Of a stretch of DNA of 64,000 bases, positions 45,107-51,272 are shown in pieces. Below the pieces are notes generated by a model that worked only from the letters and a program-made list of their open reading frames with translations, did no database searches and was not told the origin of the DNA. Made by a program: the position numbers and the translations under genes. The DNA comes from Escherichia coli (GTDB taxonomy: Bacteria > Pseudomonadota > Gammaproteobacteria > Enterobacterales > Enterobacteriaceae): the NCBI RefSeq assembly GCF_016026235.1, contig NZ_CP065613.1; one strand, 5' to 3'. Positions within the stretch are counted from its first letter, which is position 1, and the number at the start of each line of letters is the position of its first letter.

Positions 45107-46400
45107 CTGAGGGATCCCCAGAAAATTTAGTAAACCATTATCATATTGGTATACCGTTGCTGTAGAACTTTCAGCCCTGCGTCAAGTGACAGTGTGTTTA
45201 GTATGAGTGGAGAATGTCGAATCACATTCTCCGCCAGTTTTAATAACGAGATGACTCGCCTGTGCTTCACTGTATTTGCCTGATATTTATGATGTATCCC
45301 TTTGTTTTCCAGGCTGAAACCGCTTAACCACATAATGATACTGGCTAATGTTGCGATCAGACTCAATACCGTGACCCGCCCGGATGAATGACTGGCACCA
45401 AACCGTAGTCCAAATCCCCAGCGAGGATTTTTTTCATCCCTGAAATTTTGCTCAATTTGCATTCTACGGCTGTATAATTTCATTACCTGTTTTGGCGAGA
45501 ACTCAGTACTGTTTGTGAAAATAAACCATGGTGATTTCCCGGCAGTACGAGCTTTAGCCGTCACCGATGGTCTGGTTGCTCTTTCCTTCGAGCGTTTAAA
45601 TCTACGACCTTTAGGCTTACTTTTATAAAGATAAAAATGCCCTTCATGTTGTGCATTTTTATCTCGACCCAGCAGGCCTTCACCTAAATAAATTGCTGTC
45701 GTTGATGCTTTTGTGCCTGAGTCCGACACCTTTTCCCAGCCATTACCAACATTGTAATAATGATTGCCCAGTACCCGGCAAATATAGGTCCAGCCACGGG
45801 AGCGGAGCTGTTGGAACCATCGCCCCTGAAAACCGGCATCTGTAATAACAATGACATCAGTCCCGGGGGAAAAGCACTCAGCAAGCGATTCCAGAAAACG
45901 CTCATGTACATCTGCATTCGCTGTCTGTGATGATGGAACGACACAACTCATCAACGGTAAAGAACGCCCGTCACATGCCAGGCTTGCCCGCAAAAGCTGA
46001 AAACGAGAGGCATGATAAGCACTCCAGTCAATGAGTATCACAACACGAGACATTCCCCGCGTAATCTTTTGGGTAATTCGCTGAAAAATGGTGGAAACCT
46101 CATTTTGCAAATGTCGATTCCCCAACAGTCGATCCACCCGCTTTATTTTGTTTTTAACTGATGCCGTACCGGTTAAATGACGCCCGATACTGGTAAGTGT
46201 GAGGGAAGCGCCATTTATTACAGCATTAGTTGCGTCAATCAGTGATTTTTGACGGTAAAGATGCAAAGGGGCCAGTATGTTGTTAAGGAAATTTTGGCAT
46301 AATGAACGTGCAGGCATAGTGGTGATCTCCTTGAAATTGTTAGCACAATCAATTAGATCACATCTCACTATGCCTGTCTTGTTTTCTGGGGATTCCTCAG
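45107..46400 (-). mobile_element. IS4-family (IS10-like) insertion sequence, copy 3
   Basis: Same inverted repeats; 10-bp direct repeat GGGTGTTCCC on both flanks; 1294 bp. Confidence 0.85.
45127..46317 (-). CDS. IS10-like transposase (IS4 family), intact
   Basis: Translation identical to the copy 2 transposase. Confidence 0.85.
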   Translation of the reverse strand: MPARSLCQNFLNNILAPLHLYRQKSLIDATNAVINGASLTLTSIGRHLTGTASVKNKIKRVDRLLGNRHLQNEVSTIFQRITQKITRGMSRVVILIDWSAYHASRFQLLRASLACDGRSLPLMSCVVPSSQTANADVHERFLESLAECFSPGTDVIVITDAGFQGRWFQQLRSRGWTYICRVLGNHYYNVGNGWEKVSDSGTKASTTAIYLGEGLLGRDKNAQHEGHFYLYKSKPKGRRFKRSKERATRPSVTAKARTAGKSPWFIFTNSTEFSPKQVMKLYSRRMQIEQNFRDEKNPRWGFGLRFGASHSSGRVTVLSLIATLASIIMWLSGFSLENKGIHHKYQANTVKHRRVISLLKLAENVIRHSPLILNTLSLDAGLKVLQQRYTNMIMVY

Positions 46401-47998
46401 GGGTGTTCCCTCCTCCGGTTCGCTGTTCTGGTGCTGTTTATCTTCAGTCTGTCGCACTTCATTTTCCGTTTTTTTGACTTCATTTGAGGAGATATGATGA
46501 CCGGGAATCCATTTCGGATCATTCGGGTCGCTAATCCCTTCAACAAATTCTCCGCGAGAGGCAGCCAGTAATTTGTCTGCATCGACAGGATTTTTGGGCG
46601 GAATGTTTTTCCGGGCTTCATGGAGTTCTGCCCGCAGTTCCTGATATTTCTCATCAACAGCATTTACCTGTGACTGAGCATCCAGCGGCTGCGTGTCCTG
46701 ATGATGTTCAGTTGCATCCGGTTCCACTGTTTCAGCCGTTGCCTGTTCATCTGCCATTGCGCAAGATGGTTGCGGTTTTTCTTCATCATCCTGTTTTCCT
46801 TCTTCTGTTACTCGCTGCGGCATCGGGGCAGAGGAGCGACCGCAGGCAATATCCACGATTTCCGGATCAGGGTTGGCATGATCGGTTTCAGTCAGTACCT
46901 TGTTCAGATATTCAGTGACGTGCGCGGGGATGACCTCGATACCAATCGGTGCTTCTTTCACTGACGCAACCACGATGGCGCGGGAATAATCCATCCCGCC
47001 AGGCATGGTGATGAATTTGTCGCGGAAAACAGAAAAGGGCGGTTTATTTTCAGTGATAATTTCCTCAATGCGTTTAGCGTGTGCCGGATGAAGATTATAA
47101 ATATCCACGTCCATTGAACGGGCCAGTACGCCAGTGGCTACGTCGCGCGCCAGCGACGTCAGATCGTGGACGAAACCTTCGCCGCGATCGGTGAGGTTCC
47201 CGCCGCCAGCATTAGCACCGGAAGCCGTGCGAGTGATACGCGAAACACGATTTCCTTTCATCCACTCTTTTGTCAGCAGACCGCGATCGGTGTAGTTGGC
47301 ATCCAGATATGCTTCGAAAAAAGCAGTCATCAGTCCCAGATTTGAATTGCCAGGATTAGGGAAAACTTTGTCAGTATCACGCACGAGTTTGTGGAGGTCG
47401 CGAATCTCCAGCGGGTCGAGCAGACTGGTTTTATGCGAAACAGCCAGAGCAGTAACAGCCGGTAGTTCTTCATCCCGAGCAATGTGTAATGCCTGGAGTT
47501 CGTCGCGTGAAACGTGCGTTACCGGTTTTTCGCTGCCGTGTTGCGCAAGCCAACGAATGGGCAGTTCCTGACCGGAAACTGGCAGGAGCATGTTCTCCTC
47601 AATTTCTGTCATGTCTTCGCCGTTGACGTTGGTATTGTCAGTGCTGGCTGGTTTGTCCTGAACAGAGGGAGAAGATGCGATAAATACCATTGTGATGCCA
47701 TCTTCCCCGCCTTTTTCGTAACGGTTGCAGAATTCCGTATCAAACACGCCTTCTGGTGGGAGGTCATCAACAACGGGCAAATTGACGCGAACAGGTTTTT
47801 TAAAGTCATCTTCATCGTAGCCAGCATCGTCAATCGCAACAGCACCACGGGAGATGGCAATGGATAATTTTTTCGCTTCAGCCCAGTAAAAACCGCCTTT
47901 AATACCGAGGCGTTTTCTTACTTTGTCATTTTTTGCTTCGTAATACAGTGGGTAAACTTGTTTATCGGTGCTCATTGTTTTTTAACCTCAACTCATAT

Positions 47999-49212: not shown

Positions 49213-49914
49213 TAATGACATCCTCAAGTGATAAGTTAATTAACTCACCAGCAGAGGTGCTAATCTCATGGGTGGTGAGACGCACAGGGTTAGCACTACC
49301 GGTCACTCGAGAACCCGGCCAGCCTTGCGGCTGCCCCGCACGCCTCACCATAATTTGAATGTGGCTGTGCATTACGCATAAAAAAACCGCTTCAGCGCGG
49401 TTATGCGCTCGAGTAACTTTCGGGGTGCTAATCCCGGCACCCGTTTTATGAGGTGCAGGTGCACTATAATTCCACCCGTTCTGGTTTTCAATAGCTACAT
49501 TCAACATTTTCTCTTTCCTTTCATCACCGAAGTGAATTTTGTGATGCGGTGCCTGGTGCCTCCAGGTGACGTTAACCAGTTAACAATTACAGTCGGCTTT
49601 CCCACCCAAAACAATAAGGACTAACATGACTTTTAACTGTGCCGCGTGCGCTTAGCCGCATTCACCGCATCACAAAATTCACTTTAAAAAGGGCGGACAT
49701 CAGCCAGCAATTAAACCGATGCCGCCAACTGGTACTTCACACAGCAATGTCGTTATTTACAACCGGAAGCGCACTCCCACCATTTAAATTTCACAGACAA
49801 GACCGACTCTTTATGAATACCGGAAATGCGCCTTCGTGTTGTGCCCGGTTTTATTTCACCACCTCCGGGCTTTGGTGGTATCTTTACTGAAGTTCTCACA
49901 CAACCAGTAAGGAA

Positions 49915-50238
49915 ATGAATATGCCAACGTATCTCGCCAGAGTAGAACTATATAATGCTGAGCCAGAGGATTACGAAGGGCTTCATAAATATATGCTCTC
50001 ACTAGGATTCAGGAGAACGATCCCCCATGGAGATGGTTCGTATAATCAACTCCCGGACGGAACTTATGTTTCCGAAAAGGGCGGTGATATTTATCAAATT
50101 CGCAGCCAGATATCTGACTATGCAGACCGACTATCCGGGTATCGCGCGTCTGTTTTGTTTGCGAATTCAGTCAATGCGCATGGTATTTATACCCCGCCAA
50201 GACCCGGTGAATATCCTGCACGGCCTTCTGCTTTGTAG
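49915..50238 (+). CDS. hypothetical prophage protein (107 aa)
   Basis: aaggaa RBS 7 bp upstream of ATG; transcribed against the early-left operon; no TM segment. Confidence 0.5.
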   Translation: MNMPTYLARVELYNAEPEDYEGLHKYMLSLGFRRTIPHGDGSYNQLPDGTYVSEKGGDIYQIRSQISDYADRLSGYRASVLFANSVNAHGIYTPPRPGEYPARPSAL

Positions 50239-50390
50239 AAGGCTTCTTCGCTATCATAATCGCCAGATTCCAGCGCTTCTTTAGCCAGCCAGATGCGTGC
50301 CCCAGTGCCTGCATTTGGCTCCAGTTGCTGGAGGCGTTTTGCATCTTCTAGGAGTAGAGCGATAACGTGTTTTAATTCTGTCTCGTTCAT
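50187..50390 (-). CDS. YdaG-like small prophage protein
   Basis: MNETELKHVIALLLEDAKRLQQ; overlaps the 3' end of the 107-aa gene by about 50 bp. Confidence 0.45.
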   Translation of the reverse strand: MNETELKHVIALLLEDAKRLQQLEPNAGTGARIWLAKEALESGDYDSEEAFYKAEGRAGYSPGLGGV

Positions 50391-50391
50391 T

Positions 50392-50547
50392 TTACTCACC
50401 TGAATGTCTTCCCAACCAACGACGTGCGCCAGCTTCGGTTTTAAACGTTTTGCTTTTGGTATACGTCATGGCGGTGAATGTGCCGTCTTGATTGGGAAAC
50501 ACGCCACATACCAGAGATTCGTTGTTGCCAAGATCGATAGTATTCAT
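50392..50547 (-). CDS. YdaF-like small prophage protein (51 aa)
   Basis: MNTIDLGNNESLVCGVFPNQDGTFTAMTYTK...; immediately downstream of the repressor. Confidence 0.5.
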   Translation of the reverse strand: MNTIDLGNNESLVCGVFPNQDGTFTAMTYTKSKTFKTEAGARRWLGRHSGE

Positions 50548-50852: not shown

Positions 50853-51272
50853 TTATTCCGGTGGGGGATTATCTTTAATCCTGCCTCTCAAATATTTTTC
50901 TACATACTCATCGATTTCTTTTAGCCGGACTTCAAATAGCTCAATCATTCGTTGTTGTTCTGAGCCCGGTAGCTGGTTAAACAACTCAAGAAGTTTTCGT
51001 TGGGATTCATTTAACCACAATTCAGAAGATTCCTGTTCTCCAAAGAGGAGCTCAGGAGGAGATATGCCAAGTGCCTTTCCCAATACGACAGCGTCATGTA
51101 CTCCAACATTTCTGCTGCCCGCCTCATAGTTACCTATACGCGATTGCGTCCATCCGCAGATTTCAGCAAGTTTTCCTTGAGATAAACCAAGCTTCTGCCT
51201 GCGCTCTTTAAGACGCATTGCAATTTTGTCATTGAGCCTACTAGCGGCAATTTTTTCGTTTTCTTTTTCCAT
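50853..51272 (-). CDS. prophage repressor (XRE-family HTH, RacR/cI-like)
   Basis: HTH LGLSQGKLAEICGWTQSRIGNYE; divergent from a cro-like gene. Confidence 0.8.
   Translation of the reverse strand: MEKENEKIAASRLNDKIAMRLKERRQKLGLSQGKLAEICGWTQSRIGNYEAGSRNVGVHDAVVLGKALGISPPELLFGEQESSELWLNESQRKLLELFNQLPGSEQQRMIELFEVRLKEIDEYVEKYLRGRIKDNPPPE

Follow-up and report, generated by a model that had tools for sequence, protein, structure and literature searches.

A GhoS-like gene of the DUF2622/YmfI-like family in the sieB slot of an Escherichia coli prophage

GhoS (YjdK) is the antitoxin-endoribonuclease of the E. coli type V GhoT/GhoS system and the only characterised type V antitoxin. It is a soluble protein of about 96-98 amino acids (aa), classified in PF11080 (formerly DUF2622), and is encoded by the first gene of a chromosomal two-gene operon with the ghoT toxin gene downstream. 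R28 is the most important residue for its RNase activity, and two point mutations convert GhoS into a toxin (PMC4010927). The next-closest nucleases with a ferredoxin fold are Cas2 and VapD. Two prophage genes also serve for comparison: ymfI of e14, which is rightward, convergent and overlapping with ymfJ beside the repressor gene, and sieB of Rac, lambda and P22. Here we analyzed a small rightward gene in a prophage of E. coli, contained in a stretch of 64,000 nucleotides (nt) (RefSeq assembly GCF_016026235.1, contig NZ_CP065613.1), referred to as the window. A preliminary description had noted a + strand open reading frame (ORF) of 107 aa in the position that sieB takes in Rac, with a soluble product matching nothing recognizable. 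Remote-homology and structure searches revealed PHROG 8894, DUF2622/YmfI relatives and the GhoS/Cas2 fold, superseding the last of these statements. Our overall reading, to which we assign a probability of about 0.6, is that the locus is a genuine gene of a temperate-phage family of ~95-aa proteins with a GhoS-like fold, present in the sieB slot as a self-contained moron head-on to the operon, and that its product would be expressed in the lysogen and act on RNA, the opposing genes forming an excludon.

The + strand ORF is almost certainly a real gene of the DUF2622/YmfI-like family. The window protein matched PHROG 8894 over residues 3-85 (E 1e-29). A family hidden Markov model (HMM) of 79 relatives, from which the window sequence was left out, scored the window allele at 86 bits and K-12 YmfI at 62 bits; repair of a frameshift described below raised the score to 106 bits. 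Comparison of the E. coli and Salmonella alleles yielded a dN/dS of 0.32, with differences concentrated at third codon positions. The ORF extends from 49915 to 50238 with a good ribosome binding site, as had been described. However, the AAGGA motif suits the second ATG at 49921, where all homologues aligned begin with M-(P/A)-T-Y. Based on the homologue starts and the AAGGA spacing, 49921 is the likely true start. No compositional island was apparent at the gene in the GC content along the window. An ORF that arose by chance or is non-coding would fit the fact that the Prokaryotic Genome Annotation Pipeline (PGAP) leaves the match region blank in each of the 18 complete RefSeq E. coli genomes with a match. 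This alternative is already refuted and retains next to no probability, given the depth of the protein family with its strong HMM scores, the confident predicted fold, the dN/dS value with its third-position bias, and the annotation of the gene as a DUF2622 protein in other NCBI records. The gene is also unannotated in Cronobacter phage phiES15 (L075 2250-2594; 61.5 bits), where it lies in a 600-nt 'gap' flanked by the YmfJ-like gene and kil.

When 1.84 billion representatives were searched with a profile, 1,909 clusters matched at E<=1e-3, of which 604 also reached E<=1e-10. These are distributed across Proteobacteria, and nearly all members have 92-99 aa and are matched end to end. The window protein shares 84% identity with a Salmonella "DUF2622 domain-containing protein". 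Signature residues of the family are R7, E9, Y18, L21, H22, M25, P45, Y49, W88 and L90; the window protein has all of these from R7 through Y49, and W88 and L90 return once the missing T is restored. With NCBIfam NF051477 (YmfI_phage, an equivalog model) the protein scored 39 bits, below the cut-off of 140; judged by its sequence, it is a YmfI homologue and not an equivalog. YmfI of e14 is itself a distant family member (~30% identity to the window protein) in which most signature residues are gone (R7H, E9R, Y18T, H22E), and K-12 ymfI (L006 5498-5839) encodes a 20-aa C-terminal extension. K-12 YmfI is therefore a poor model for the family.

Other searches were negative. Pfam gave no match for the window or the repaired protein, and none to PF11080 even at E<=10. 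PDB sequence searches with the protein and the family profile found nothing significant, PADLOC-DB v2 had no match at E<=1 for the + strand protein or either - strand neighbour, and tblastn of K-12 YmfI against phage genomes found no match. The papers found on ymfI and ymfJ give expression or deletion data only. The window gene is an ordinary accessory gene of mosaic prophages, belonging to a known but uncharacterised family.

To relate the family to GhoS, we combined structure prediction with profile comparison. AlphaFold2 (AF2), run on an alignment of 80 sequences, predicted a beta-alpha-beta-beta-beta-alpha-beta structure at a pLDDT of 94.5, which has the ferredoxin-like fold expected of a GhoS-like protein. 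In a Foldseek search, GhoS (2LLZ; TM 0.62) was the sole PDB match below E 1e-3, followed by Cas2 structures. Note that ACT and PII-like proteins match this fold at similar scores. A fold search of the BFVD viral structure library returned nothing at E<=1e-3. PF11080 was matched by 19 of the 80 relatives at E<=1e-3 (best E 2.7e-8), and hhalign aligned the family with GhoS over 64 residues at E about 5e-4 in an ungapped +6 register. In this register, R28 of GhoS aligns with the near-invariant H22, a His in 74 of 80 relatives.

GhoS and the window family are alike in size and solubility but differ in several respects. Identity between GhoS and the window protein is about 14%. GhoS is narrow, its true homologues being confined to E. 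coli at >=64% identity, whereas the window family comprises about 1,900 clusters in Proteobacteria. Instead of the first position in a two-gene operon, the window family occupies that of a lone inverted prophage gene; the window copy lacks a ghoT-like gene, and the gene downstream is convergent and encodes a soluble protein. Since the window protein has no Pfam match, carries His at the position of R28 and has no adjacent ghoT-like gene, it is a relative of GhoS and not a GhoS member. The E. coli-only distribution of GhoS, seen against the broad family to which it is related, makes GhoS look like a narrow, divergent offshoot of a broad phage family. Cas2 and VapD are without sequence similarity to the family (E. 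coli Cas2, -0.7 bits with the family HMM), and the window locus has no CRISPR context.

Could the gene be a type V-like antitoxin, i.e. an RNase of the GhoS type that degrades the transcript of a toxic gene such as a small membrane toxin or kil/kilR? We regard this as highly improbable, even though GhoS is the closest structure and kil/kilR lies divergently next to the gene in Salmonella and E. coli DEC5A. At the window copy the neighbour is Rha, not kilR, and a ghoT-like neighbour is missing here as well as at about 20 of 23 other loci; moreover, R28 is not conserved and the true GhoS clade is narrow and limited to E. coli. In about 20 of 23 diverse loci the GhoS-like gene stands alone on the strand opposite both neighbours, an arrangement also found in Pseudomonas phage Cruim01, Burkholderia phage Magia, Ralstonia phage Dina, the Salmonella copies and e14. 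The ghoST-like cases that would favour the type V alternative are a minority. At one locus (L070 3001-3530), a co-directional 59-aa ORF with two transmembrane (TM) segments follows the GhoS-like gene with a 4-nt overlap of its stop, and in one protein (P0156) the GhoS-like domain is fused to two C-terminal TM helices. These two cases may be links to type V toxin-antitoxin modules.

We next consider the state of the window copy, which keeps the family frame only through codon 78. Close Salmonella and E. coli relatives have 95-96 aa and end in ...RASVFVCEFSQCAWYLY(P/R)AK.., whereas the window protein ends in ...RASVLFANSVNAHGIYTPPRPGEYPARPSAL. Addition of one T to a T4 run restores the family C-terminus and the TGA stop at 50208-50210. 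Thus, the length of 107 aa given in the preliminary description does not hold for the intact protein, which has 96 aa; the last 27 residues are the product of a 1-nt deletion. In 18 of 18 complete RefSeq E. coli genomes with the gene, the 324-base query aligned over 325 bases, which fits one extra T. We also examined 31 close loci (two E. coli genomes, four Salmonella contigs and 25 IMG/VR loci) with a script that read T5 in 27 of 27 readable runs; two further close loci yield an intact 96-aa product. The frameshift, after V78, changes the sequence of part of the final core strand and eliminates W88 and L90, which are among the ten most conserved family positions. With codons 79 onward out of frame and these two residues lost, the window copy is probably impaired. 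A point against this is that the AF2 model of the frameshifted allele still has a strand at 77-83, although its tail is of low confidence (pLDDT about 60); loss of function is thus likely rather than proven. Programmed frameshifting at the T run seems implausible, as no slippery heptamer was recognized by eye.

The missing T could also be a homopolymer sequencing or assembly error, with the source genome carrying the intact 96-aa gene. The T4 allele was found in no other sequence, the 18 RefSeq genomes having one more base in the match and T5 being read in 27 of the 31 close loci. A collection of 15 billion proteins did not contain the exact frameshifted protein, while the repaired version (96 aa) is identical to a Shigella flexneri/boydii protein present on 58 contigs. 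Furthermore, the nearest genome, E. coli O121, is 99.8% identical over 1,101 bases and differs at only 2 positions, one substitution and the missing T. Set against these observations, T5 is a short run, and genuine independent lesions elsewhere (insertion sequence (IS) elements, a nonsense codon) demonstrate that decay of this gene happens. We therefore consider an error doubtful, while counting it among the points that weaken the overall reading.

The independent lesions were found in a set of close copies (L026, L034, L036/L040 and L031). A ~1.33-kb element of IS size is inserted at codon 14 and, elsewhere, immediately before the ATG; an insert of ~1.15 kb is located near codon 29, and codon 59 has become a nonsense codon. 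Such lesions may represent neutral decay, the genomes being rich in IS elements, or the gene may be selected against.

Table 1. Features at and around the GhoS-like gene (window coordinates)
Feature	Coordinates	Strand	Remarks
GhoS-like (DUF2622/YmfI-family) coding sequence (CDS), window state	49921..50238	+	105 aa from likely start, 107 aa from ATG 49915
Repaired GhoS-like gene	49921..50210	+	96 codons and TGA 50208-50210, one T restored
Shine-Dalgarno motif AAGGA	49909-49913	+	Read from sequence; 7 nt before ATG 49921
T4 run, site of 1-nt deletion	50149..50152	+	T5 in every close copy readable there
Putative promoter, TTCACC-18 nt-TGgTATCTT, extended -10	49855..49884	+	Candidate; below scanner threshold
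Cassette (GhoS-like gene and YmfJ-N-like gene)	49883..50407		Swaps for K-12 Rac sieB cassette
Module common to Salmonella lambdoid prophages	49887..50235		88.6% identity; 5' untranslated region, CDS and about 25 nt downstream
Convergent small gene, 67 aa	50187..50390	-	ATG 50390; open frame runs 50187..50399
YmfJ-N-like conserved part, residues 1-49	50244-50390	-	Family match to YmfJ N-terminus
18-residue tail (…KAEGRAGYSPGLGGV)	50187-50243	-	Antisense read-through into GhoS-like module
Rha-family regulator ORF, 279 aa	48668..49507	-	Left neighbour
DUF1391 (YdaF-like) gene	50392..50547	-	Stop abuts YmfJ-like gene start
HTH (DicA-like) prophage repressor	50853..51272	-	

The genomic position of the gene can be defined by comparison with K-12 Rac. 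Homology to Rac spans racC, ydaE, kilR and the kilS region, ends at window position 49882 (Rac position 2605, locus L007), 67 nt before the sieB ATG, and resumes within ydaF at 50408. By these breakpoints, a window cassette of 525 bp replaces the 566-bp sieB cassette of Rac exactly; the window has no counterpart of the Rac ydaG segment. The sieB-like position proposed before is therefore borne out, as are the flanks (the Rha gene on the left, the YdaF-like gene and the HTH repressor on the right) and the rightward orientation of a gene with a soluble product against the early-left genes. In E. coli O55:H7 DEC5A, the same cassette directly adjoins kilR. Only the 49887..50235 module is common to the Salmonella copies, where kil/kilR is on one side of the gene and a convergent overlapping gene near cI on the other. 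A hairpin (CACCAC..loop..GTGGT, 49857-49879) lies just upstream of the cassette junction and is kept in Rac, the window and Salmonella with differing loops; it may be a promoter spacer, a terminator or a recombination junction.

Like the GhoS-like gene, sieB of Rac lies in this cassette slot in the same orientation relative to kilR and ydaF, in the interval from the kil side to ydaF and the repressor, and is transcribed against the early-left operon; sieB and ydaF are also convergent overlapping genes. The proteins are different. SieB of K-12 has 162 aa and hydrophobic stretches, and a SieB-type protein would be expected to have about 160-190 aa with hydrophobic segments. In contrast, the intact GhoS-like protein has 96 aa, is soluble and lacks a hydrophobic segment, and the window protein shows no similarity to K-12 SieB (BLASTP E 0.68).

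A lysogen-expressed product could nevertheless act as a functional analogue of SieB and abort infection by other phages, in superinfection exclusion or anti-phage defence. Exact occupancy of the sieB cassette slot suggests such a role, and the orientation opposite the lytic operons fits lysogen expression. Relatives are moreover found in accessory-gene or defence hotspots, for example beside a P2-like portal and terminase, following a SocA_Panacea gene, in the interval from the tail end to terS, and, in Salmonella, beside variable kinase or P63C genes near cI. By extension, the YmfJ-like partner, produced from the phage's own early operon, could confer self-immunity. P22 sieB/esc follows this logic. 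Given the missing SieB similarity, the lack of a TM segment where K-12 SieB has hydrophobic stretches, the lack of any matching PADLOC model and the weakness of position alone as evidence, we consider exclusion unlikely.

Two of these contexts merit description. At L041/L061 (332-1651), a SocA_Panacea gene, a 155-aa gene and the GhoS-like gene are co-directional and adjoin a P2-like portal and terminase, a defence hotspot position. In the Salmonella loci L008-L011, the interval from the module to cI contains variable cargo: a DUF2767 gene, followed by a DUF1828 gene with a 180-aa gene, by a gene for a P63C-domain protein, or by a Ser/Thr kinase gene with a 187-aa gene. This interval looks like an immunity-region accessory-gene island.

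The convergent - strand neighbour had been described as YdaG-like. No local alignment to K-12 YdaG was obtained at E<=100, and no ydaG homologue is present in the window. Instead, the neighbour is YmfJ-N-like, sharing 81% identity with the e14 YmfJ N-terminus over 42 aa. Its 18-residue tail is also found in an unrelated Salmonella partner gene. The overlap of about 50 bp between the two genes is present in the window (52 nt, 50187-50238); about half of it is a by-product of the frameshift, as the overlap amounts to 24 nt (50187-50210) in intact alleles. PGAP calls the YmfJ-like gene (window 50265-50390; L001 6667-6792) a partial pseudogene, 'incomplete, missing C-terminus'. This call is doubtful, because stand-alone forms of 46-55 aa are the norm in at least seven loci. 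YmfJ of e14 has 102 aa, whereas about 50 aa is usual for the family and is also the length of the part conserved in the window, and it is more likely that the e14 protein, rather than the short form, is atypical.

The partner pattern, M.E.ELKHVIALLLED..RLQ..EPNAGTEARIWLAK.ALESGD, defines these stand-alone 46-55-aa proteins encoded convergent to GhoS-like genes. Such a partner is present in seven IMG/VR prophage loci (L048/50/58/60/62/63/66), where the stops often overlap by 4 nt, and in four more contexts, namely e14, the window type, Cronobacter phage phiES15 and Aeromonas phage pAEv1818. The pairing thus recurs in at least 11 prophage contexts. The pair occupies different slots, between the tail end and terS/terL, after an N-like antiterminator gene, after the CI repressor gene and in the sieB slot, and it therefore probably moves as a unit, i.e. 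as a cassette. The partner is small (about 50 aa), acidic and better conserved than the GhoS-like gene (median identity 72% versus 48%). Comparison of partner class A (YmfJ-N-like) with classes B and D by hhalign detected no homology, and NCBIfam has no name for any partner class.

These features of the partner invite the alternative of a two-protein toxin-antitoxin or effector-inhibitor system, with the GhoS-like protein as a growth-inhibiting RNase that is bound and neutralised by the acidic YmfJ-like protein. Recurrence of the pair in different slots, the size, acidity and higher conservation of the partner, the ease with which GhoS is made toxic by two point mutations (PMC4010927) and the repeated disruption of the GhoS-like gene in close copies (IS, nonsense and the window frameshift) would all be in line with it. 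A convergent orientation is unusual for protein-protein toxin-antitoxin pairs, and each gene is also found without the other. We regard this alternative as improbable, and a protein pair with the YmfJ-like partner in general as improbable to quite unlikely.

Expression data are available for the K-12 relatives. Among the 165 convergent overlapping transcript pairs that the RNA-seq-based ExcludonFinder reports for K-12 are ymfI-ymfJ and sieB-ydaF (PMC12288877). The e14 induction iModulon contains ymfJ and not ymfI (PMC12133099). In an SOS time course, ymfJ rose by 4.8 log2 and ymfI by 2.0, with ymfJ far stronger late, and YmfJ protein was detected (PMC11002266). By analogy, these data fit an independently regulated + strand gene that opposes the early-left operon. 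They also lend indirect support to the earlier suggestion that convergent transcription couples the two window genes, in that the listed K-12 pairs, ymfI-ymfJ and sieB-ydaF, would be the counterparts of the window arrangement. As ymfI is listed with a "potential SOS box", we looked for a LexA box upstream of the GhoS-like gene, and none was seen by eye. The promoter-like element upstream of the gene (Table 1) has a counterpart at the same place in the Salmonella copy (TTCACC-16 nt-TGgTATGCT).

In the overall reading favoured here, the GhoS-like gene of intact copies would have a promoter of its own, active in the repressed prophage, and its product would bind or cleave specific RNA via the conserved R7/E9/Y18/H22/Y49 set. 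On induction, antisense early-left transcription through the overlap would shut the gene off in the manner of an excludon, and the YmfJ-like partner, as a member of the early-left operon, would be made at the same moment. Expression of the gene would in turn exclude early-left transcription. RNA targeting is a tentative element of this scheme, which, taken by itself, we hold to be less likely than not.

Several observations weigh against the overall reading. Only a fraction of the family is recognized by the Pfam GhoS model; the window protein has no match to it even at E<=10, and GhoS itself scores only 6.7 bits with the family HMM. The catalytic R28 of GhoS is replaced by His in the family. 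Family members are mostly acidic (median pI 5.9), which disfavours generic RNA binding and, together with the missing Arg, weakens the case for RNA targeting. A sigma-70 scan found no promoter upstream of the GhoS-like gene, and the candidate element is a weak consensus match. In the Stx, Serratia, Yersinia and Pectobacterium phage loci that were sampled, the YmfJ-like gene had no GhoS-like family match beside it, and GhoS-like genes are also found paired with at least two further classes of small convergent genes. Because partners occur apart and other partner classes exist, the pairing may be positional. Finally, we found no paper on DUF2622, on PF11080 or on the function of YmfI.

A more far-reaching possibility, which we consider quite unlikely, is that of an unrecognised mobile cassette, a tail-to-tail excludon, composed of the GhoS-fold gene and the acidic YmfJ-N-like gene of ~50 aa. 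Its GhoS-like product would act on RNA in the lysogen, the partner made in the lytic phase would neutralise it or take over, and E. coli GhoS would be a domesticated offshoot. With the same low probability, the action on RNA in the lysogen would serve to exclude incoming phages or to restrain prophage or host transcripts.

Further features were noted around the gene. Within the 5' third of the Rha ORF on the - strand, Rfam identified, above gathering score, a C4 antisense RNA (49268-49355, 78.6 bits) and isrK (49380-49456, 68.5 bits), along with a c4 a1/b1 target-like match (49417-49469). The 49268-49469 region looks like an antirepressor control region of the P1/P7 immI type or the Gifsy isrK-anrP type; in that case, the initial ~100 codons of the 279-aa Rha ORF may not be coding sequence but RNA genes. 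Between the Rha ORF and the cassette, ~49530-49882 (- strand) is 91% identical to the kilR-sieB intergenic region of K-12 Rac and includes the equivalent of the kilS small RNA at about 49687-49785. Sub-threshold Rfam matches in this region are DicF-like (49691-49741) and STnc100-like (49538-49679), and a terminator-like hairpin is located at 49723-49696. The kilS-like region is thus kept although the Rha gene has taken the place of kilR. Further left (45127-47975), a 413-aa ORF (45127..46368), transposase-like by eye, directly adjoins one of 535 aa (46368..47975). The counterpart gene in the near-identical E. coli O121 locus carries the annotation of a truncated RecE-family exonuclease. The recombination module of the prophage appears to be disrupted.

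The window copy alone matters little, being a frameshifted allele of a gene already recorded as hypothetical or DUF2622. The family is of wider note, with about 1,900 clusters that occupy accessory or defence slots of temperate phages. It represents the broad sequence neighbourhood of GhoS, it recurs with a small convergent partner, and it is itself often left unannotated, as in RefSeq E. coli genomes and phage phiES15. Several annotations call for correction: the YdaG-like label is wrong, the pseudogene call for the YmfJ-like gene is doubtful, and the GhoS-like CDS is missing from many records. If intact members are indeed RNA-targeting proteins expressed in the lysogen, this would provide a function for the uncharacterised K-12 genes ymfI and ymfJ and would reveal the origin of GhoS.

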